This document shows, piece by piece, positions 3,976 through 30,072 of a stretch of 33,970 bases of DNA. The DNA is from a virus: UHGV virus genome UHGV-0040082. One strand, written 5' to 3'. The notes beneath the pieces were generated by a model. It did not search any database. It was not told where the DNA came from and saw only the letters and a program-made list of their open reading frames with translations. The position numbers and the translations under genes are program-made. The stretch's first letter is position 1. The number at the start of each line of letters is the position of its first letter.

Positions 3976-4500
3976 TTATGTGCCATGATTAACACCATAA
4001 TATTTTTCTTCTAAAAACATCCTGTAAGCTACTGCATCACCGAAATCGTCAAAGTATTTATTGCTTTTTCTTTTTCCGTTCACAGCTATATACACCCTCC
4101 ACTGCTCCCTAGACTTGCACCACGATACACCACGAAAACCGCTAGTATTGTTTGACTTTATTTTCCCACTCCTTACGAAATCAGCACAGTTATCAACCTG
4201 ATAACCTATGTTAAGGTTTTCTATTCTATCATCACCCCTTACGTCGTTAATGTGCCTTATTACATGCTCATCAGGTATCGGGCCGTGATGCATTACCCAT
4301 ATAACTTGATGTCTATAGTAATTTCTCTTTTTATACGTGAATATGTAGTAACCGTTTTTATTCCTGGCGCCCACCGGACCCGGTTTTCTTCTTCCTCCAT
4401 TTTCACATATTAAAGTTTTCCAATATATGTTCCCTTCACTGTATATAAACAAGTCATTCCAGTTTATGCTATTGACCATGTCGTGATTTATTTGTGACAT
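3976..4500 (-). CDS. HNH homing endonuclease with C-terminal AP2-like DNA-binding domain
   Basis: HNH-type motif (HINDVRGDDRIENLN) followed by an AP2-like segment (GFRGVSW...W.V.I..NGK...); AT-rich relative to flanking tail genes; paralog of the ORF at 22125-22631. Confidence 0.8.
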   Translation of the reverse strand: MSQINHDMVNSINWNDLFIYSEGNIYWKTLICENGGRRKPGPVGARNKNGYYIFTYKKRNYYRHQVIWVMHHGPIPDEHVIRHINDVRGDDRIENLNIGYQVDNCADFVRSGKIKSNNTSGFRGVSWCKSREQWRVYIAVNGKRKSNKYFDDFGDAVAYRMFLEEKYYGVNHGT

Positions 4501-19106: not shown

Positions 19107-19667
19107 TCAAAACAATTGCAATTGAAAACGTTCGCTGACTTCTTTCATTAACTGCTTAACATGTTTCTTATCACGCTTTCGCTGAGTTAACAGGCGGCTT
19201 CCAACCTTGCCGACCGTTTCGCTATCAGTAGCAAAACTGCTTACTGCATTCATTACCTGTTCACAGCTTGCGCCGCAACAAATAAGACCCTTAACGTGTT
19301 CAGCCATGTCATCATGTGTTTTAGGTTTTTCTCCGTAATAGCCATTATGACGAATAGATGGCAATACTTCCTCAAACACCCAATCCTGGAAGCGTTCGGC
19401 TGATTCAAGTTTTGAATGCATAATCAAGCGGAAAACATCCGGTTCGTAAATCAGGCCAACTCCTTTCGGCTTGAATCCGAATCCTAATTCTCGCGTTTTG
19501 CGAGAATCAAGTTTAATCAATGATTTACAGTGTTTTTTAATAGCATCATGCTCGTTCTTATAACCTAACGCGCGAGCAACATTAACAGCAACAAAAGCTG
19601 GCTTATCTGCATAAATAACCGTTTGCACTTGTTTATCATCAAACGAGAATTTAACAACCTTATTCAT
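19107..19667 (-). CDS. Bro-N domain protein (antirepressor-like)
   Basis: N-terminal Bro-N-like segment (AVARALGY..EHDAIKKHCKSLIKLDS ... SKLESAERFQDWVFEEVLPSIR); paralog of the ORF at 23783-24520. Confidence 0.7.
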   Translation of the reverse strand: MNKVVKFSFDDKQVQTVIYADKPAFVAVNVARALGYKNEHDAIKKHCKSLIKLDSRKTRELGFGFKPKGVGLIYEPDVFRLIMHSKLESAERFQDWVFEEVLPSIRHNGYYGEKPKTHDDMAEHVKGLICCGASCEQVMNAVSSFATDSETVGKVGSRLLTQRKRDKKHVKQLMKEVSERFQLQLF

Positions 19668-20674: not shown

Positions 20675-22090
20675 TTAAAAAGATGCGTTATTCTGATTGT
20701 TTCGTTGGTTAAATCGGCTTGCGCGATGATTCATAGACTGAATACATGCAGACGCTGCGCGGGCCTGGTCACAAGGGAGGATATTGCCGTTGTCATCAAA
20801 CCGCTGGTAAACAGTACCAGTTTTCCCGTGACGGTTTTTAGATACAATTATTTCCATGTATTCGCGTGCTACAGACTGCTCATCGTAATAACCATCGCGG
20901 TAAACCATGATGATCCTGTCAGCGTCTTGCTCAAGGTTCCCTGAATCTCGAAGATCTGAATTATTAGGGCGCTTGTTAGGTCGTTCCTCAACGCGGCGGG
21001 ATAACTGGGCCAGCGCCAACACTGGTACGCGCAATTCTTTCGCCATCATCTTCAACGACCATGACAATTGCCCTACAGCGAGATCGTGACGTTCGGCTTT
21101 AGCCAGCTTCATTAAACCGATGTAGTCAATCATTACCATGCCCAGGTTTGGGTGATCCTGCTTCATGCGTTCCGTTGTTGCGCGTATTTCCTCAACCGTT
21201 AACTGCGACGCGTCAACGATCCACACCTCAAGATTAGCAAGTGCGCTCATACCCTGGCCGACATGCGCCCAACCCTCATCATCAAGTTTTACCGGATTGC
21301 GCAGGCAGTCAGTTGATAAATTACCAGCGCCAGCAATGGCCCGTTCAGTCATCTGATCGAGTGACATTTCAAGCGTAAACAGCAAAACGCCTACCCGCTG
21401 ACCTTCGCCACCAGGGTAAGGGCGCTCGGCAGCCTCGCGAGCAATTGCAAGCGCCAACGCAGATTTACCAGACCCAGGACGTCCGGCGAGAAGTACCAAA
21501 TCAGTAGCGTTAATTCCGCCTAACATTTCGTCGAGTGGTTCTATACCTGTTTTGATGTTGTCAGAATTGACACCGCATTCCATGCGCTTGCTTAAAACGT
21601 CCGTATACTCCTGTACCGCATCACGCAACAGAACCGGAATGATCTTGTCTTTCGTTACCTTTAATTTTGAATACCGGGAATCAAAATCTTTCATCGTCTC
21701 TTTGACGACTTCAAGCGTCCCCGTTTCCAGCTTGTAGCGCATATCGTCGATGAGTTCCAACATCTGCCGCCGCTGGTGCTCTTCACGTAGTAGCTGTGCG
21801 TATCCCTTCAGGTTGGCAGCAGAAGGACACGATCGCGCCGTTTGCATTAGCGGTACAAAGTTTTCATTGCCAATCTCATCGCCAACTAATAACGCGTCGA
21901 TAAGATTCCTGTTTCTGGCTTGCGCCCGGATAACTTCAAACGCACGTTTATAAAGCGGGATCGTGAACACTTCAGGATCAAGTGTGGCGAGAACATCTTG
22001 CGCGTTAGGAGTAAGGCCACCTAACAGTAGCCCGCCGATAACTGACGCTTCACGTTCCTGCCGTAGTGAGTTTATTTGCTCAGTTACCAT
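20675..22090 (-). CDS. DnaB-family replicative DNA helicase
   Basis: 471 aa; N-terminal DnaB-like domain, Walker A GRPGSGKS, C-terminal RecA-like fold motifs. Confidence 0.85.
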   Translation of the reverse strand: MVTEQINSLRQEREASVIGGLLLGGLTPNAQDVLATLDPEVFTIPLYKRAFEVIRAQARNRNLIDALLVGDEIGNENFVPLMQTARSCPSAANLKGYAQLLREEHQRRQMLELIDDMRYKLETGTLEVVKETMKDFDSRYSKLKVTKDKIIPVLLRDAVQEYTDVLSKRMECGVNSDNIKTGIEPLDEMLGGINATDLVLLAGRPGSGKSALALAIAREAAERPYPGGEGQRVGVLLFTLEMSLDQMTERAIAGAGNLSTDCLRNPVKLDDEGWAHVGQGMSALANLEVWIVDASQLTVEEIRATTERMKQDHPNLGMVMIDYIGLMKLAKAERHDLAVGQLSWSLKMMAKELRVPVLALAQLSRRVEERPNKRPNNSDLRDSGNLEQDADRIIMVYRDGYYDEQSVAREYMEIIVSKNRHGKTGTVYQRFDDNGNILPCDQARAASACIQSMNHRASRFNQRNNQNNASF

Positions 22091-22124
22091 TATGTTATTG
22101 CCTCCGGTTTACAAAATGGAAAAT

Positions 22125-22631
22125 TCAGGGTAAAGAAATACCGTGATTGCTATGAAAGTTATACATTCTTTCAGCTTCTTTTCTTGCTTTTACGGCATCA
22201 TCAAATGAGTCACCGTAATAAACGTATATTGTTTTCTTTTTCCCATCAGACCCCCTTATACCTATTTGCGCGCGCCATTTATTAGTTTTCTTGTTCCATG
22301 TAACGCCAACGCATCCGCTGGTGTTACTTGATGGTATTGTTTTATTTCTGTTGTTCTCCCTCCTTGTAACCATCCTTAAGTTTTCGATTCTATCATCGCC
22401 AGGCACATGATTTATGTGATCTATTTCCATTCCATCAGGGATAGGGCCGTTAAACATTTCCCAAATAATGCGGTGACGCCATGTACAACACACACCATTA
22501 ACGCGGATAGTCCAATATCCGCTATGATGCCTACTTCCAGCAACGTCACCGGCTTTTGTTTTGTTATTTGCGCGGTTACAAGACCAATATAGAACACCGT
22601 CCCTATAGGTAAATAAATCATCCCACATCAT
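22125..22631 (-). CDS. HNH homing endonuclease with AP2-like domain (second copy)
   Basis: EIDHINHVPGDDRIENLR motif followed by GCVGVTW...W.A.I motif; start overlaps the stop of the upstream gene; paralog of the ORF at 3976-4500. Confidence 0.75.
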   Translation of the reverse strand: MMWDDLFTYRDGVLYWSCNRANNKTKAGDVAGSRHHSGYWTIRVNGVCCTWRHRIIWEMFNGPIPDGMEIDHINHVPGDDRIENLRMVTRRENNRNKTIPSSNTSGCVGVTWNKKTNKWRAQIGIRGSDGKKKTIYVYYGDSFDDAVKARKEAERMYNFHSNHGISLP

Positions 22632-23748
22632 GACACACCACCATTTCAGGCCTATATACAAAGCGACCAATTTCGCCATAATCAGGACTGTAAATGATAA
22701 CCGCCGCGCAACGTTGCGATCTCCATCCTCCATTAGTTGAATAAGCGTCTTTGCCCGCTAACGTGCCGTGGTGTTCAACTATGCCTATAGATGATTCTGT
22801 TACTGATTTATGGTGCAAATGTCCGACATGGACGTAAACATATTTCGACTTGCCGAAATCCTCGCGCCAGTCAGCTACGCAAGCAGCCAATAAATTTTCC
22901 GGCTTTTTAATAGTGTGCCCGTGGTGGTAAGCAAGAAATGTTTTACCGTACTGCGTGTGGTGGACGATAGCAGGTGACACATCAACCGTCACGCGCGGTT
23001 CATCTTCGTAAAAAGCCGCCAGCGCCGCACGTAGCCAAATCATGCCTGACTGATCGTGATTGCCTGACAACACCTGGATTTCAACATCCTTATGATTTAA
23101 CAACATTTTACCTACCGCCCGCCGGACAGACCGGATCGCCACATAAACAAGTTTTGCGTAGCGACTATCTTGATCAAGAATGTGCCCGCTTATTGGCGTC
23201 ACCGGGACCATACCGTCAGAATGAAGCAGATCGCCACCGAGGAGCAGTACGGCTTTTTCAGACATCGGAGCAGCGCCAACAGCGTAGTCAAAGAAGTCAT
23301 TCAACACGCGCTCAGCGATCCCAGTGTCGTAGCTCTCGCCGCATTCAGCTTTATGAGCAAGCGCCCCGATATGCAGATCAAACACCGGATAAAGGGCCAG
23401 GCTTTTTTGAAAATCAATTTCAGGCACTGGCACAGCCTCCGCGCGTGGTATTTCATCCGTGAAAGCGTCGCGGGCCGCTTCCATTAACTGTTCCATTTCG
23501 TCGCGGTCACGGGCTGTTTTAATCCAGCGCATGATCACATTGCCATCCTTATCGACGAGCAATGACTCAGCATTGACGCCAAAACCCGGTGCGCGACGCG
23601 TGGATATTAAACCGCGTTTCGCCAGTTTTGCGCCTAGCCGCTCGACGTTGCGTTTTGACATGCCATATTTTTCAGCGATCTGCTTGTACGTTAAACCGTT
23701 GTTATATTCAGCGATCAATTGCTCATCGCTGATTTTTCTTTGTGACAT
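22618..23748 (-). CDS. HTH domain fused to calcineurin-like metallophosphoesterase
   Basis: N-terminal HTH (LTYKQIAEKYGMSKRNVERL); then phosphoesterase motifs in order: DLHIG, GGDLLHSDG, GNHD, YHHGH, GHLHH. Confidence 0.7.
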   Translation of the reverse strand: MSQRKISDEQLIAEYNNGLTYKQIAEKYGMSKRNVERLGAKLAKRGLISTRRAPGFGVNAESLLVDKDGNVIMRWIKTARDRDEMEQLMEAARDAFTDEIPRAEAVPVPEIDFQKSLALYPVFDLHIGALAHKAECGESYDTGIAERVLNDFFDYAVGAAPMSEKAVLLLGGDLLHSDGMVPVTPISGHILDQDSRYAKLVYVAIRSVRRAVGKMLLNHKDVEIQVLSGNHDQSGMIWLRAALAAFYEDEPRVTVDVSPAIVHHTQYGKTFLAYHHGHTIKKPENLLAACVADWREDFGKSKYVYVHVGHLHHKSVTESSIGIVEHHGTLAGKDAYSTNGGWRSQRCAAVIIYSPDYGEIGRFVYRPEMVVCHDVG

Positions 23749-23782
23749 AGTGTCATTTCCTCACGAATAACAAATTGTATAC

Positions 23783-24520
23783 TTAGTTGCAAGTTAAAAG
23801 CTCAGTGATCCATACTTGTCCTTTAGCAGTGAATACAGCCTGCTCATATCCATCGTGAGTTACCCTCATTTCACCGTAGCCCTCATCAATAAACCACTGA
23901 CTGAATACACGGCGGCGACAGCGAAGATCATAAACACCAACCGCCGAAAGTTTTCTGTTTAATTTTACGGCTGACATTCCCAGCGGTTTAGCTACCTCTG
24001 AAGCCGTTCGGTGCATATCGTTTTTGACTATCGCGTCACATACAGCCGCTTTCGGAGCCAGCACTTTATTTTCAAGCGCAAGACGTTCATTTTCTTGCTT
24101 AACTAACAATTTTTGCTCGTATTCATTAGCCCACGCCCGCGCCGCTTCCGCAGGGTTAGAGAAGTCAGGCAAAGCAGGTTTGCAACCGTAACACCCATTT
24201 TCACGCAAAGCCGGAAGAACCTCCTCGCACACCCAATCCTGGAAGCGCTCGGCTGATTCTAATTTTGATCTCATAACAAGACGGTATATATCTGCCTCTC
24301 GAATTATAATTATGCCTTTTGGTCTGAACCCAAAACCTAATTCCGTTGTTTTAACGGAATCAAGTTTAATCAATGACTTACAATGTTTTTTAATGGCCTG
24401 ATGCTCGTCGTTGTACCCCAGCGCACGGGCCACATCAACCGCAACAAAAGCAGGTTTACCGTCATAAATTACAGCAGTGATTTTATTGTCATCAAAATTA
24501 AAACACATCAACTCAGACAT
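23783..24520 (-). CDS. Bro-N / KilA-C-type antirepressor-like protein
   Basis: Start at MSELM with GGAGA RBS; N-terminal Bro-N segment near-identical in places to the ORF at 19107-19667; longer C-terminal domain. Confidence 0.7.
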   Translation of the reverse strand: MSELMCFNFDDNKITAVIYDGKPAFVAVDVARALGYNDEHQAIKKHCKSLIKLDSVKTTELGFGFRPKGIIIIREADIYRLVMRSKLESAERFQDWVCEEVLPALRENGCYGCKPALPDFSNPAEAARAWANEYEQKLLVKQENERLALENKVLAPKAAVCDAIVKNDMHRTASEVAKPLGMSAVKLNRKLSAVGVYDLRCRRRVFSQWFIDEGYGEMRVTHDGYEQAVFTAKGQVWITELLTCN

Positions 24521-24652
24521 TGTAATTTCTCCGTAAAACGCTCTACAACGCAAAAATCCCACCGCGTAACCCGTTTGCACAGGTTGCAGTGTCTTATTGC
24601 GCCAGAGGCGCTATCAGGTGGCTAATTTTCGATTTACAGACTGGTATGTAGG

Positions 24653-24754
24653 TTATGGATTGATTAGCAGGTACAAACCGCCGAACAAAGCGACGTTAAC
24701 AGCGATTGCAGCAGCGATGGCAAAGGCCAGGGCGAAAACGTGTTTACCGTCCAT
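24653..24754 (-). CDS. Possible 33-aa hydrophobic peptide
   Basis: MDGKHVFALAFAIAAAIAVNVALFGGLYLLINP; RBS GAGAGGA; shares a 17-nt leader (CGTTTTAGAGAGGATTT) with the upstream AntA-like gene. Confidence 0.3.
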   Translation of the reverse strand: MDGKHVFALAFAIAAAIAVNVALFGGLYLLINP

Positions 24755-24768
24755 TTTTTAAATCCTCT

Positions 24769-25407
24769 CTAAAACGAATTATTAGAAACGAATTTTCTGT
24801 ATGGCTTAGGTAACGAAGGAGTGTTGCCGCCAAATAACAACCTTATCGCATTAACAGAAAACTCAACATACATAAACGGTTCACCATCAGCATGATAGCC
24901 AACCTGTTGGCGAGCAAGCCCGCGAAGCGCCATAGACGGCGTAACAATCCAGCCATTATCAACCTTTTGAACCATGCCCAGCTTTGCAGCAGCCTTATAA
25001 ACTTCACCAGACTTTCCAGGCAAGATTTTCCCTGGAGTAAGGAATACACCCTCAAGCATGTTGATCAGGCAATCATTTTCCTTGCGTAACTGCGCTGCCT
25101 CTTTCTCTCTTTCGATGAAGTAGTCACGAACCGCGCGCCCCTTAGGTGTGTGCTGGATCATCGCAATGTGTTTTGCTGCCTCAACAGTCAGAAAATATTC
25201 AGATGCTGGGCGGCCTCCATCCAGGTTATGAACATTTTTGTTCAAAACCTCAAAATCCAAAGACTTACGCAACCCGCACGCCTTTATCTGACGCTTTATC
25301 CACATGTGATAAGGAGTTTTAACACCCATTGCCTCATGTAACTGGCGACCGTCAACAGCCTCGCGCGTAACGCCGTCCATATCCTTAACAACAATATCGA
25401 ACTTCAT
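24769..25407 (-). CDS. AntA-domain antirepressor-like protein
   Basis: 212 aa; N-terminal region resembles the AntA/AntB family; RBS GAGAGGA. Confidence 0.5.
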   Translation of the reverse strand: MKFDIVVKDMDGVTREAVDGRQLHEAMGVKTPYHMWIKRQIKACGLRKSLDFEVLNKNVHNLDGGRPASEYFLTVEAAKHIAMIQHTPKGRAVRDYFIEREKEAAQLRKENDCLINMLEGVFLTPGKILPGKSGEVYKAAAKLGMVQKVDNGWIVTPSMALRGLARQQVGYHADGEPFMYVEFSVNAIRLLFGGNTPSLPKPYRKFVSNNSF

Positions 25408-25540: not shown

Positions 25541-26587
25541 TCAAAGAGCGCCACATCGTGTATCACGTAGCGTTTTTGGTTTAAGTAGAAAATCCAGTGT
25601 CGCAGTAAAGCCATTGCCGAAGTAAAAATCTGAAGCCGTGTTTTTGAACGTTTCAAAGTAGGCGACAAAGCCGTTGATGCTTTTGTCTTTCAGGTAGTCA
25701 GTGAACGCATAAATCTTGCGTTCAAGATCCCTATCCAGTTCGGCAGGTGGCAACAGGCCATCAAACGTGCTGTTAAATGCCTCCACTACGTCGGCAGCGT
25801 TTGCAGTGGCTGACAGTTTGCGCCATTTTTCAGCATCAGCCAGATACCCATCAAATTTAGTTACCCGGCAAATGTTTATAGGCTTAGGTGTTCCACCACG
25901 GCTACGCCATTGCGTTAAAGCCCACTCAATCACTAATGTGATCTCATCCTCCGTATACGCTTTACGTGTTTTTGTTTCTGTCAGTAGTTCGATGAATGGC
26001 TTCGCATCACGACATTTGCATCCTGCCTTGTCGTTGTAGAAGGCCAGGCAACGCAACGCCGCTTCGTTTACGCCATCATGATTGACATGTTTTTCTTCTG
26101 GGGGGATATAAGGGGGTATATTTTTAATGTTCTCTTTACTGGTTATATATGACTGGTTAGGGTGACTCTGTGTCACTACCCCCGGTGACTCTGTGTCACT
26201 ACCCTGGTGACTCTGTGTCACTACCCCCGGTGACTCTGTGTCACTACCCTGGTGACTCTGTGTCACTACCCCCGGTGTCACAGTGACACTACCATGCAAT
26301 GACGGAAGGACTATTACATAGAAATTACTAGTTTGCTCTTTTCCTCCGATTAAGTATCTTGGTTGTTTAATCAACAACCCTTTTTCACAAAGTGAGTCTA
26401 CAGCCCTCATAGCTGTTCTTTTGCTGATCTCACACTCCTTTGCTATGTGATGGTAAGAAGGGTAACACTCGCCGTTATCATTAGCGTTATCAGCTAACTT
26501 CAACAGCACTAGTTTGTGCATTGGGTCGCCGACCTCAGTATGGAAGACCTCTACCATTAGCCGCATACTCATAAGCATTAACCTCAT
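25541..26587 (-). CDS. Replication initiator (lambda O-like) containing the origin iterons
   Basis: N-terminal winged-helix/HTH segment, internal peptide repeats GVVTQSHQGSDTESP x3 encoded by DNA iterons, gene sits upstream of the DnaB helicase. Exact start uncertain. Confidence 0.65.
   Translation of the reverse strand: MRLMLMSMRLMVEVFHTEVGDPMHKLVLLKLADNANDNGECYPSYHHIAKECEISKRTAMRAVDSLCEKGLLIKQPRYLIGGKEQTSNFYVIVLPSLHGSVTVTPGVVTQSHQGSDTESPGVVTQSHQGSDTESPGVVTQSHPNQSYITSKENIKNIPPYIPPEEKHVNHDGVNEAALRCLAFYNDKAGCKCRDAKPFIELLTETKTRKAYTEDEITLVIEWALTQWRSRGGTPKPINICRVTKFDGYLADAEKWRKLSATANAADVVEAFNSTFDGLLPPAELDRDLERKIYAFTDYLKDKSINGFVAYFETFKNTASDFYFGNGFTATLDFLLKPKTLRDTRCGAL
26161..26293. repeat. Origin-like iteron array: five 22/23-bp direct repeats plus one palindromic variant
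   Basis: ggtgactctgtgtcactaccc(cc/t) repeated five times (26161-26273), then ggtgtcacagtgacactacc; each unit has internal dyad symmetry GTGAC..GTCAC; AT-rich tract at 26100-26160 on the downstream side. Confidence 0.7.
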
Positions 26588-26593
26588 GACGAA

Positions 26594-26839
26594 CTAAAAC
26601 ATTAACTGATAAACACAGAAGAAACCTGGTAGCTGGCTGATTAGGCCGCTTCTTTTCAGTTGATGAAGTGCAGAGATAGTATCGCGTAACGGAATTTCGC
26701 ACATTTCAGCGATTTCTTCCGGCGTTACTTCGCTTTTGCCGTTGCATCCGGCCTTTGTTGCCAGTGCAATTAAGATGAGTTTTTGCGCCGGATCATTGTT
26801 ATTCAGGCGAATATCAAAAGCCTTGCGCACGTAATACAT
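26594..26839 (-). CDS. Small HTH protein at the Cro position
   Basis: 81 aa; first gene of the minus operon, divergent from the repressor; RBS GGAGA; its HTH resembles the N-terminal HTH of the adjacent O-like protein rather than a classical Cro. Confidence 0.5.
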   Translation of the reverse strand: MYYVRKAFDIRLNNNDPAQKLILIALATKAGCNGKSEVTPEEIAEMCEIPLRDTISALHQLKRSGLISQLPGFFCVYQLMF

Positions 26840-27143: not shown

Positions 27144-27647
27144 ATGAAAACAAAATGGTATGACTTAGCAAAACAACTCATGCGGGCGCAGGGCATGAGC
27201 CAGGATTCATTGGCTGATCTTATGGGGATAACCAAAGGCGGCCTTTCTCACTGGCTGAACGGTCGCCGTGAGCCGAATCTTGAAGATATTGCGCGTATCA
27301 TGCGGGCGCTTGGGCGTCGGCAATTCACTGTTACTCATGACGGAATGGTCATTGATGATTCTGTTTCTAACACGTTGCTGGGAGCGCCACCGCGTGATTT
27401 AGGCAGTTATCCGGTTGTTGACTGGAAGGATGTAGCAAACAATATGGAAGGCACACACCGATCAACATTGCCACACGTTGCTACTAGCGTTATTTGTTCG
27501 GATGATAGTTATTGGCTGGTTGCTAAAGGTGAATCAATGAACGCACCGCAGGGGTTAAGCATCCCGGCGGGGACTATGATACTCGTTGACCCGCACGCGC
27601 CAGCTATTGACGGAAAACTTGTTATAGCACAACTGGAGGAAGGGTAG
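27144..27647 (+). CDS. CI-like repressor (HTH plus S24 peptidase domain), ended prematurely by in-frame TAG
   Basis: N-terminal HTH (MSQDSLADLMGITKGGLSHWLNGRREP), S24 Ser motif GESM; TAG at 27645-27647 comes before the expected catalytic Lys segment. Confidence 0.75.
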   Translation: MKTKWYDLAKQLMRAQGMSQDSLADLMGITKGGLSHWLNGRREPNLEDIARIMRALGRRQFTVTHDGMVIDDSVSNTLLGAPPRDLGSYPVVDWKDVANNMEGTHRSTLPHVATSVICSDDSYWLVAKGESMNAPQGLSIPAGTMILVDPHAPAIDGKLVIAQLEEG

Positions 27648-27791
27648 ATACCTACGTTTAAGCAGTTGATTATTGATGGAGGCCGAAAACTTTTGCGTTC
27701 GCTTAATCCGCTGTATCCGCCAATCCCTATGAATCCAGAATCAAAAATATTGGGCGTGGTGGTTGATGCGAAGATCGTAAACCTGCCATAA
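27648..27791 (+). other. In-frame continuation of the repressor reading frame after the TAG
   Basis: Same frame translates to IPTFKQLIIDGGRKLLRSLNPLYPPIPMNPESKILGVVVDAKIVNLP, resembling the C-terminus of lambda CI (..FTFKKLI..LQPLNPQYP.I.....VVGKV..), ending at TAA 27789-27791. Confidence 0.7.
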
Positions 27792-27797
27792 ACATTA

Positions 27798-28292: not shown

Positions 28293-28583
28293 ATGAGCGT
28301 TACAATTATGTATGGAAAATGTGATAGCAAAATGAACGCCAGGGAACGCAGAAGGATAAAAAGAGAAAACGAAAGAAAATCATCACCTGCAATTAATAAA
28401 ACAGACAATGTGGATAAAGCTATTCGATTTGCAAACGAGGAAAGGTGCAAACCAAATAGCATTAAAGAACGTCGCAAAGGATCAGTAAAATGGTATACGG
28501 AAAATGAAAGCGGCAGCTACTACCACGCAACGCAACCACGCCATTTAGGGGAGAAACCCCTGGATAAAGTCCGTTACCATTAA
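28293..28583 (+). CDS. N-like antiterminator candidate (arginine-rich motif protein)
   Basis: 96 aa; N-terminal arginine-rich segment NARERRRIKRENERK; first gene downstream of the pL-like promoter and nut-like site; RBS GGAG. Confidence 0.45.
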   Translation: MSVTIMYGKCDSKMNARERRRIKRENERKSSPAINKTDNVDKAIRFANEERCKPNSIKERRKGSVKWYTENESGSYYHATQPRHLGEKPLDKVRYH

Positions 28584-28732
28584 TACAAAATGTAAACATT
28601 CGGAGGTGACATTATGGTTATTCAGGCGCTTCAATTCAAACTGGCAGTAGCGGAAATGCTTCACGATGCCGAAATGTGGAGCGCCGCGAATAAAGCCTTA
28701 TACATAGTGTTAACAGCGAAGGAGATTAAAGA

Positions 28733-29374
28733 GTGAAAACAGAGTTACACAAAAAGCTGTGGACGATTCAGCAAACACTGAACGCTCCAAAGGGGCAATA
28801 CAATAAGTTCGGTGGATATTCATACCGATCAGCGGAGGATATTTTAGAGGCTGTAAAACCACTACTTCAAAATGTCACGTTGATGGTTAGTGATGAAATT
28901 GTCCTGATTGGTGATCGCTATTATGTGAAAGCTACGGCAACACTAAGCGACGGTGAGGATTCAATTTCAGCAACTGCATTTGCAAGGGAAGAAAAAGAGC
29001 AAAAAGGGATGACGGCTGGGCAGCTAACTGGCGCGACATCAAGTTACGCGCGGAAATATGCCCTGAACGGCCTGTTCTGTATAGACGATGCGAAAGATTT
29101 AGATACTGACGCTTACGCTAAGCAGACTGGCCAGCAGCCTCGCCAGCAGAAAAACCCACCAAAACAACAACCACAGCAGCAGAAAGCGCCGCCAAATCCT
29201 GATGAGGTGTTAGCGCGTTTCTGTGATGCGGCAGCGAAAGCGCAGGACGCTAACAAGTTACGCGAGATCTTCGGGAAGTGCTGGAAACTACTTCCTAAAG
29301 ATTCAGAGCAGCAACAGAAAGCCAAAGACGTTTATGATATTCGCTTAAAAGAGATTAACGGGGAGATCGGTTAA
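28733..29374 (+). CDS. erf: ERF-family single-strand annealing protein
   Basis: GTG start with AAGGAG RBS; N-terminal two-thirds resemble recalled P22 Erf (LNAPK.QYN.FG.Y.YRS.EDILE.VKPLL, IVLIGDRYYVKATAT, GATSSYARKY.LNGLF.IDDAKD); Gln/Pro-rich linker. Confidence 0.8.
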   Translation: MKTELHKKLWTIQQTLNAPKGQYNKFGGYSYRSAEDILEAVKPLLQNVTLMVSDEIVLIGDRYYVKATATLSDGEDSISATAFAREEKEQKGMTAGQLTGATSSYARKYALNGLFCIDDAKDLDTDAYAKQTGQQPRQQKNPPKQQPQQQKAPPNPDEVLARFCDAAAKAQDANKLREIFGKCWKLLPKDSEQQQKAKDVYDIRLKEINGEIG

Positions 29375-29778
29375 TGAGCTTAAATTTAATCACACTTGGC
29401 GGTAATATCGGAAATGATATGGAAATTCATTACACGCAAAACGGTAAAGCTATTGGTAGCTTTCCGTTAGCTGTAACGAATGGCTACGGTGATAATAAAC
29501 GGACAATGTGGATCACTTGCCTGGTATTTGGCGAGCGTGCGGAAAAATTAGCGCCACATATCCGTAAGGGTGGAAAAATAGTGGTAAGCGGTCGCCTGGA
29601 TGTTCGGCAATATGACCGGAACGACGGCACGAAGGGAACTGCGGTAGAAGTGGCGGTCAATGAGTTTGAGTTCATGGCTGTTAACCAGCAAGGCCAGCAG
29701 CAGAAAGCGCCGCCGCAGCAGCAGAATAATAACGGGAATAATGTTCCTCCTGACTTCGATGACGACATCCCGTTTTAA
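29374..29778 (+). CDS. ssb: Single-stranded DNA-binding protein
   Basis: OB-fold-like N-terminal region, Gln/Gly/Asn-rich linker, acidic C-terminal tail DFDDDIPF as in E. coli SSB. Confidence 0.85.
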   Translation: MSLNLITLGGNIGNDMEIHYTQNGKAIGSFPLAVTNGYGDNKRTMWITCLVFGERAEKLAPHIRKGGKIVVSGRLDVRQYDRNDGTKGTAVEVAVNEFEFMAVNQQGQQQKAPPQQQNNNGNNVPPDFDDDIPF

Positions 29779-29793
29779 ATCAATAGGTTAGCG

Positions 29794-30072
29794 ATGGTTG
29801 ATTATTTAAAAACGCCACCGCCACCGCGAACAAAAGAGCAAGTATTAAAAGAAGCCCGTGATCAAATCGATCGCGGGCTTTTTTTATGCGGCACGGCAGC
29901 GGAACGGATGGCAAAAAGATTTAGTGACCTGTACGCAAAACAAATATGGTTCGACAACTGGCAGGCAAGTTTTTACCCACTGCAAAGAAAACCGGATATG
30001 CACTGGCCTGAATATGTCGATCCACGTATGCGCAAATATCGCGGGCGTATGGGCCAGGTCATTAACGATTAA
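29794..30072 (+). CDS. Hypothetical protein (92 aa)
   Basis: ORF in early-left operon; no domain recognised. Confidence 0.4.
   Translation: MVDYLKTPPPPRTKEQVLKEARDQIDRGLFLCGTAAERMAKRFSDLYAKQIWFDNWQASFYPLQRKPDMHWPEYVDPRMRKYRGRMGQVIND

Follow-up and report, generated by a model that had tools for sequence, protein, structure and literature searches.

What does a protein with a DNA-binding head and the motifs of a metal-dependent phosphoesterase do between the replication initiator and the replicative helicase of a temperate phage? The question is raised by the virus genome UHGV-0040082, analysed here as one stretch of 33,970 nucleotides (nt), which we call the window. Positions 22618 to 23748 encode a protein of 376 amino acids (aa) in which an N-terminal helix-turn-helix (HTH) precedes a calcineurin-like phosphoesterase domain; a first-pass annotation had noticed both parts, leaving unstated that the gene lies on the minus strand, and had taken the architecture for an unfamiliar one. 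Sequence comparisons place the protein instead in PHROG 704 (phrog_704), a very common and already catalogued phage family and not a new kind of replication protein. On balance we favour the reading that it is a stand-alone, HTH-tethered DNA nuclease or phosphodiesterase of the Mre11/SbcD/PolD-DP1 branch, a preference held with only somewhat more confidence than doubt.

The match to phrog_704, a family that carries the label "DNA repair exonuclease", joins aa 4-370 of the protein to positions 2-389 of the 390 in the profile (E=3.2e-143); other labels given to its members are 'putative phosphoesterase' and 'calcineurin-like phosphoesterase'. Searching 50,697 phage records with tblastn yields homologues in 2,039 (about 4%), with at least 80% of the query covered in 1,941. 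The closest relatives are a protein of phage mEp515 (98.7% identical) and gp11 of mEp021 (96.8%), both deposited in GenBank as "hypothetical protein". Identity by tblastn falls to about 73% in Salmonella Macdonaldcampvirus, to 56-67% in the T1-like Drexlerviridae, to 40-45% in Dhillonvirus and its relatives and to 32-36% in Vibrio and Rhodobacter phages. Members from all these phages are like the window protein in full-length homology, length, architecture and invariant residues; the Campylobacter homologues are shorter, their N-terminus being absent. Bas01_0050 of the Drexlerviridae phage Bas1, with 376 aa and a full-length identity of 56% (E=9e-157), also matches phrog_704, as do the homologues from Vibrio, Rhodobacter and Campylobacter phages. 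An exhaustive profile search of 1.84 billion representatives returned 5,288 clusters at a cut-off of E<=1e-3; a stricter one of E<=1e-30 left 1,323 50%-identity clusters. The best 150 clusters listed are mostly 370-420 aa long and matched almost end to end. Judged by full-length homologues at E=0 and by these 1,323 clusters, the reality of the open reading frame (ORF) lies far beyond chance.

Copies are also found, as prophages, in 35 of 5,426 complete E. coli genomes, each copy among those listed being labelled "hypothetical protein". Given these copies and the near identity to mEp515 and mEp021, the window phage belongs with the temperate coliphages of the mEp-immI group (PMC11893012); the paper describing the group does not mention the phosphoesterase gene. 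Searches with the window protein of NCBIfam, PADLOC and PDB sequences gave no significant match. Likewise, a biochemical assay of a phrog_704 member did not turn up in our searches of the literature, family libraries and solved structures, and papers on retrons, ApeA and anthracyclines hold nothing on the gene. The copy in the window is thus an ordinary one: mEp515 and mEp021 already have near-identical genes on deposit, and phrog_704 is a catalogued family.

The gene, its start signal and the predicted parts of its product are as follows.

22618..23748, minus strand: HTH-metallophosphoesterase gene, member of phrog_704 (376 aa, ATG start, from the ORF list)
23756..23762, minus strand: putative Shine-Dalgarno sequence GAGGAAA, 7 nt 5' of the ATG, read from the sequence
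23614..23748, minus strand: predicted N-terminal three-helix HTH, aa 1-45, like GerE and sigma-70 region 4 (model helices 8-16, 21-28 and 32-44; Pfam matches in homologues)
23449..23586, minus strand: predicted linker of a beta-hairpin and a long helix, aa 55-100 (model strands 56-65 and 71-80, helix 82-99)
22636..23409, minus strand: predicted calcineurin-like phosphodiesterase domain, aa 114-371 (motifs I-V)

The N-terminal assignment draws on the homologues. In the window protein itself the HTH gives sub-threshold Pfam matches only (aa about 10-58, E about 1e-3), and a profile search against PDB places GerE on this region at E=0.015. Sigma70_r4_2 matches 18 of 19 homologues (best 2e-6), and HTH_1, HTH_8, GerE and other models, of the LysR, Fis, sigma-70 region 4 and GerE types, match up to 18 of 100 (best 1.5e-9). 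Conservation was read from an alignment of 100 representatives that are 28-57% identical to the query; in every one of them at least 99 residues precede motif I, and residues G69 and W75 of the linker are conserved in at least 90%. For the remainder of the chain, an AlphaFold model built on 103 diverse sequences (mean pLDDT 93.1, pTM 0.78), which superseded a mediocre model from 19 close sequences (pLDDT 74.5), predicts the two-layer beta-sandwich of the calcineurin-like superfamily. The sandwich spans aa 117-371 and has nothing C-terminal to it, the chain stopping about 60 residues past motif V. The Pfam Metallophos models (PF00149/PF12850) do not match the window protein even at E<=10, and their matches in 23 of the 100 homologues are all sub-threshold (best 1.9e-5). 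This is a limit of the Pfam model, not evidence against the fold.

Within the sandwich the five motifs of the superfamily, DxH, GDxx(D/H), GNH(D/E), H and GHxH, occur in order, as DLHIG from residue 124, GDLLH from 172, GNHD from 229, YHHGH from 274 and GHLHH from 309. Together they supply D124, H126, D173, N230, H231, H276, H310 and H312. All are invariant across the homologues except H310, which is conserved in 98%, as is H176. The latter lies in a family-specific loop after motif II, where T184 is invariant and D178, D192 and R196 are nearly so. The first-pass annotation had made its proposal depend on whether the metal ligands persist across homologues; at 98-100% conservation they do, and the two-domain architecture that it described, an HTH joined to a complete and apparently active metallophosphoesterase, is borne out by the HTH matches in homologues, by the predicted structure and by the conserved ligands.

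Which branch of the superfamily does this active site belong to? It had been suggested that the predicted structure be compared with Mre11/SbcD on the one hand and with the lambda protein phosphatase on the other. The closest folds to the model are those of PolD-DP1, the best structural match, of Mre11 and of SbcD; the signatures of the PPP protein phosphatases of the lambda type (GDxHG, GDxVDRG and GNHE) and the PPP fold are absent from the protein. Like Mre11 and SbcD, the modelled protein has the nuclease-domain fold and the catalytic residues. In contrast to them it lacks a capping domain, the core sandwich ending at about residue 371 and 188-189 of the targets' 319-362 residues being aligned, and it carries an N-terminal HTH. 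A gene for a Rad50/SbcC-like ATPase is present neither in the window nor beside the homologues in 10 annotated phages. At the level of sequence profiles there is no match to Mre11/SbcD in NCBIfam, and the PDB profile search reaches only E 0.5-1.2. A canonical SbcCD or Mre11-Rad50 nuclease was dropped as a candidate for want of a capping domain and of an ATPase partner. The archaeal PolD small subunit DP1, a 3'-5' proofreading exonuclease grouped here with the eukaryotic polymerase B-subunits, resembles the model best in fold, yet identity is only 13%, the model has no OB-fold domain, neither a DP2 partner nor a phage polymerase is encoded nearby, and the protein falls outside the definition of the DP1 family.

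Experimental hints come from the Bas1 orthologue. A 2026 preprint on the DRT7/UG10 reverse transcriptases reports that phage Bas1 escapers have missense or frameshift changes in Bas01_0050, described there as "a nucleic acid-targeting phosphoesterase", and that expression of this gene is toxic in E. coli; escapers of lambda-vir are mutated in gam (10.64898/2026.02.16.706125). We infer that phages can do without phrog_704 in the laboratory, that it harms the host, and that it makes or is something to which a DNA-related defence responds. Precedents are provided by two further phage enzymes. Gp48 of mycobacteriophage A10ZJ24 is toxic to its host and degrades DNA in vitro and in vivo, in a manner that depends on its conserved motifs (PMC12287305), and A1 of T5, a predicted metallophosphatase resembling double-strand-break repair and proofreading nucleases, is needed for degradation of host DNA (bioRxiv 10.64898/2026.04.02.716235). 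The literature on the classical genetics of host DNA degradation by T1 yielded nothing usable. The preprints on Metis and PUA-Cal-HAD proved irrelevant: their phosphoesterases belong to host defence, and their escape mutants are altered in denA of T-even phages. A component of a defence system was dropped as an identity for the window protein, which has no PADLOC match.

Of the activities put forward in the first-pass annotation, the DNA-targeted nuclease is therefore the best supported, by the fold of the Mre11/SbcD/DP1 type, the invariant ligands and the toxic orthologue mutated in DRT7 escapers, while the phosphatase that had been named beside it lacks the PPP features. Nuclease activity, a DNA substrate, the identity of the metal and the biological role of the window protein are what we infer, and they may be pictured as follows. 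The N-terminal HTH and the linker of hairpin and helix would form a DNA-binding module that replaces the capping domain and the Rad50/SbcC partner, the HTH tethering the enzyme to duplex DNA. The centre formed by D124, H126, D173, N230, H276, H310 and H312 would bind two Mn2+ or Mg2+ ions, and H231 and H176 would help to hydrolyse the phosphodiester bonds of DNA, at its ends or in branched or nicked intermediates. In the window phage the gene belongs to the early rightward operon, where it is co-transcribed with the genes for an O-like initiator and DnaB, and the product would be an accessory, non-essential enzyme that processes DNA ends or replication-recombination intermediates. Damage to host DNA may be a further effect of this activity in the lytic relatives.

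The leftward operon of the window (28293..30072, plus strand) encodes an N-like antiterminator, Erf, SSB and an anti-RecBCD protein of the Abc2 type. This recombination set (Erf, SSB, Abc2) is P22-like and has no exonuclease of its own; processing of ends or intermediates is thus the most plausible role for the phosphoesterase.

Among the alternatives, the one that survives best, unlikely as we hold it to be, is a host-takeover DNase whose main task is to degrade or nick the host chromosome, supplying nucleotides or silencing host defence genes, a task proposed for A1 of T5 and demonstrated for mycobacteriophage Gp48. The toxicity of Bas01_0050 in E. coli and its dispensability in the laboratory would fit such a role, as would the precedents of Gp48 and A1, phage metallophosphoesterases that act on host DNA. 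So would the standing of the gene as a persistent core gene of the strictly lytic Drexlerviridae, where it precedes the holin-endolysin-spanin genes in 508 of 522 (PMC13164509). However, a temperate group keeps this gene constantly in its early operon (39 of 39 loci, and the prophages of the 35 E. coli genomes), and wholesale loss of host DNA would conflict with lysogeny. Nor is there detectable kinship to either precedent, both of which stand in other PHROGs. The pre-early A1 of T5 (phrog_1745) is 556 aa long and restricted to Demerecviridae, and its comparison with the window family gives an hhalign probability of 18% from a local match of 19 residues around motif III. The cluster-A mycobacteriophage enzymes A10ZJ24 Gp48, Bxb1 gp47 and L5 gp54 (phrog_221) are, like the window protein, phage metallophosphoesterases among early or replication genes, but they are about 255 aa long, have no HTH and reach an hhalign probability of 14%. 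On these figures, membership in the family of T5 A1 and in that of Bxb1 gp47 and A10ZJ24 Gp48 was rejected.

Is the enzyme, then, part of the replication machinery? The first-pass annotation placed it between genes for an O-like initiator and antirepressors and the gene for DnaB, which ORFs and family matches confirm, and expected at this position a helicase loader or an accessory replication factor. The neighbours are listed below; on the minus strand they run in the order O-like initiator, AntA, Bro-N/KilAC, HTH-phosphoesterase, HNH_3 endonuclease, DnaB.

25541..26587, minus strand: O-like initiator gene (ORF and family matches)
24769..25407, minus strand: AntA-type antirepressor gene (ORF and family matches)
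23783..24580, minus strand: Bro-N/KilAC antirepressor gene (ORF and family matches)
20675..22090, minus strand: DnaB-type replicative helicase gene (Pfam DnaB_C, E=1e-75), which follows the phosphoesterase gene throughout the mEp-immI group

We scored 80 IMG/VR loci with reference proteins, a screen that covers mEp-type and T1-like loci only. Phages mEp021 and mEp013 have an O-like initiator gene first, then a variable insert, the phosphoesterase gene, an optional HNH gene and dnaB. Across the mEp-type loci dnaB follows directly downstream in all 39, with a gap of 22-34 nt in 36 of them and an HNH gene alone coming between in the other three. The slot between initiator and phosphoesterase gene is a variable hotspot across these loci, 400 to 1,600 nt long and holding an antirepressor, a zinc-ribbon gene, other small genes or almost nothing. 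None of the 40 T1-like loci, and none of the other lineages examined, has dnaB linked to the phosphoesterase gene. In T1-like loci a holin gene follows it in 39 of 40, with endolysin and spanin genes next wherever the locus is long enough, and the gene also stands beside lysis genes in Dhillonvirus EP23, in Rhodobacter phage RcAquaphina and in one Vibrio phage. In Campylobacter phage F372 it stands beside the genes for a DNA ligase and a Holliday-junction resolvase. Thus the early operon upstream of dnaB is the place of the gene in the mEp-immI group whereas the lytic phages carry it before the lysis cassette, and adjacency to DnaB is a trait of that group and not of phrog_704. Because the adjacency is limited to mEp-immI loci, a replication role deduced from position is unsupported. 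P22-type modules, which pair an O-like initiator with a phage DnaB, are not known to have a loader gene of their own; the position upstream of dnaB therefore implies no loader and leaves no gap to fill.

In the lytic siphoviruses of our collection (loci L004-L008 and the T1-like L050-L091) the gene is the last before the lysis cassette or adjoins it, an unexplained placement for a DNA enzyme.

The boldest version of a replication role runs as follows. In the mEp-immI group the HTH-tethered, Rad50-independent nuclease of the Mre11/DP1 type may be a dedicated partner of the DnaB/O-like replisome, for instance as an end-processing or proofreading exonuclease acting in trans or in preparing origin or fork for DnaB, and throughout the family its DNA products may be the signal sensed by DRT7/UG10. 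We regard this combination as a long shot; if true, the phrog_704 enzyme would be a general nuclease-type trigger of reverse-transcriptase defences.

A replication factor in the plainer sense, a helicase loader or replisome accessory acting with DnaB and the O-like initiator, perhaps as a replisome-docked exonuclease like DP1 or the B-subunits, we consider improbable. The constant proximity of dnaB in mEp-immI-type loci speaks for it, as does PolD DP1 being the best structural match, and a mycobacteriophage metallophosphoesterase, Bxb1 gp47, is required for phage DNA replication. Yet outside this group the gene does not adjoin one for a DnaB-type helicase, lysis genes standing next to it in the T1-like, Dhillonvirus, Rhodobacter and Vibrio phages, frameshift mutants of the Bas1 orthologue are viable, and strict conservation of the catalytic residues points to an enzyme rather than a scaffold. 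The protein has no similarity to loaders, neither Pfam nor PHROG nor NCBIfam giving a match to lambda P, DnaC or the DnaD/DnaB-loader types, and it shows no full-length homology to a characterised phage replication protein. The earlier expectation of a loader or accessory factor thus finds no support and was dropped, while the accompanying remark that this is not a standard lambdoid replication protein proved right.

There is similarly little probability in a phosphodiesterase acting on nucleotides or second messengers, or another small-molecule esterase with, for example, an anti-defence function, in which the HTH would serve regulation or localisation. The DNA-binding domain kept in 100 of 100 homologues, the contexts of DNA metabolism and the toxicity fit a DNA substrate better. 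Moreover, phages that lose the gene escape a defence, whereas losing an anti-defence gene would have the reverse effect, and similarity to PADLOC entries or anti-defence proteins is absent. A protein phosphatase of the lambda type, or a DNA-binding regulator (transcription factor or recombination directionality factor) whose catalytic centre is irrelevant, is very improbable, even though lambda phosphatase belongs to the same superfamily, an HTH is present and Bxb1 gp47 moonlights as a recombination directionality factor.

With the DNA nuclease as the preferred reading, phrog_704 as a family merits attention for its spread over about 4% of phage genomes, its place as a core gene of T1-like phages, its perfectly conserved nuclease-type active site and its link to DRT7. 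A temperate, genetically tractable phage of E. coli K-12 with the gene beside dnaB is a convenient system for finding the role of the enzyme.

The downstream end of the gene has a history of its own, in which three segments take part.

22125..22631, minus strand: free-standing HNH homing-endonuclease gene (HNH_3 and AP2; Pfam HNH_3 E=1.4e-21), absent from mEp013
22618..22893, minus strand: foreign 3' allele of about 275 nt linked to the HNH gene, giving the altered phosphoesterase C-terminus ...FVYRPEMVVCHDVG
22109..22132, minus strand: 24-nt remnant of the ancestral phosphoesterase 3' end (YPEFSIL*), downstream of the HNH gene and an exact match in the mEp013 alignment

The HNH gene may start at an ATG at 22631 or 22628, so that it shares the last 11-14 nt of the phosphoesterase ORF, an overlap already pointed out in the first-pass annotation and annotated likewise in mEp021. 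That the gene is an insertion, as had been supposed, is confirmed by its absence from mEp013 and from 36 of the 39 related loci, in which the phosphoesterase gene directly precedes dnaB. Over its last 275 nt or so the phosphoesterase gene shows 67-80% identity to HNH-less mEp013, compared with about 93% upstream, but 97-100% to HNH-bearing mEp021. The mosaic from 22109 to 22893 looks like, and likely is, the product of a homing event with a co-conversion tract, and the exchange of the C-terminus along with the HNH insertion sets the window protein apart from other members of phrog_704.

HNH genes often adjoin phrog_704 genes in other phages, and they stand directly beside them in unrelated ones (L005:39208-39693; L008:6208-6717; L063, L065, L066 and L068; and L049, whose HNH is a different allele, 59% identical). 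They lie downstream in Bas01 and a Vibrio phage, while several T1-like contigs have them upstream. It seems that homing has hit the conserved phosphoesterase gene repeatedly. A second HNH_3 ORF (3976..4500, minus strand) is found within the block of tail genes, on the opposite strand and downstream of the tape-measure gene.

Elsewhere in the window, codon 168 (27645..27647) of a cI-like repressor gene (HTH_3 and Peptidase_S24; 27144..27794, plus strand) is an in-frame TAG; cI of mEp013 has Gln there. The frame continues past the TAG and matches the C-terminus of the mEp013 protein, and the codon is either an amber, clear-plaque-type allele or a sequencing error. The early operon holds three antirepressor-like genes, AntA and Bro-N/KilAC within 23783..25407 and a second Bro-N gene at 19107..19667 (minus strand). 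Directly 5' of the O-like gene lies an ORF of 81 aa (26594..26839, minus strand) that matches phrog_4617 (E=1e-9) as well as O-like and DnaD-like families, and whose equivalent in mEp021 is annotated as MarR-like. Its sequence resembles the winged helix that replication initiators have at the N-terminus, and it looks like a separately encoded paralogue of the domain by which the initiator binds DNA. The O-like gene itself holds 5.9 tandem copies of a 23-bp unit (26161..26293; Tandem Repeats Finder (TRF) score 210) encoding the repeated peptide GVVTQSHQGSDTESP; the repeats probably serve as iterons of an origin that lies within the initiator gene, as it does in lambda O.

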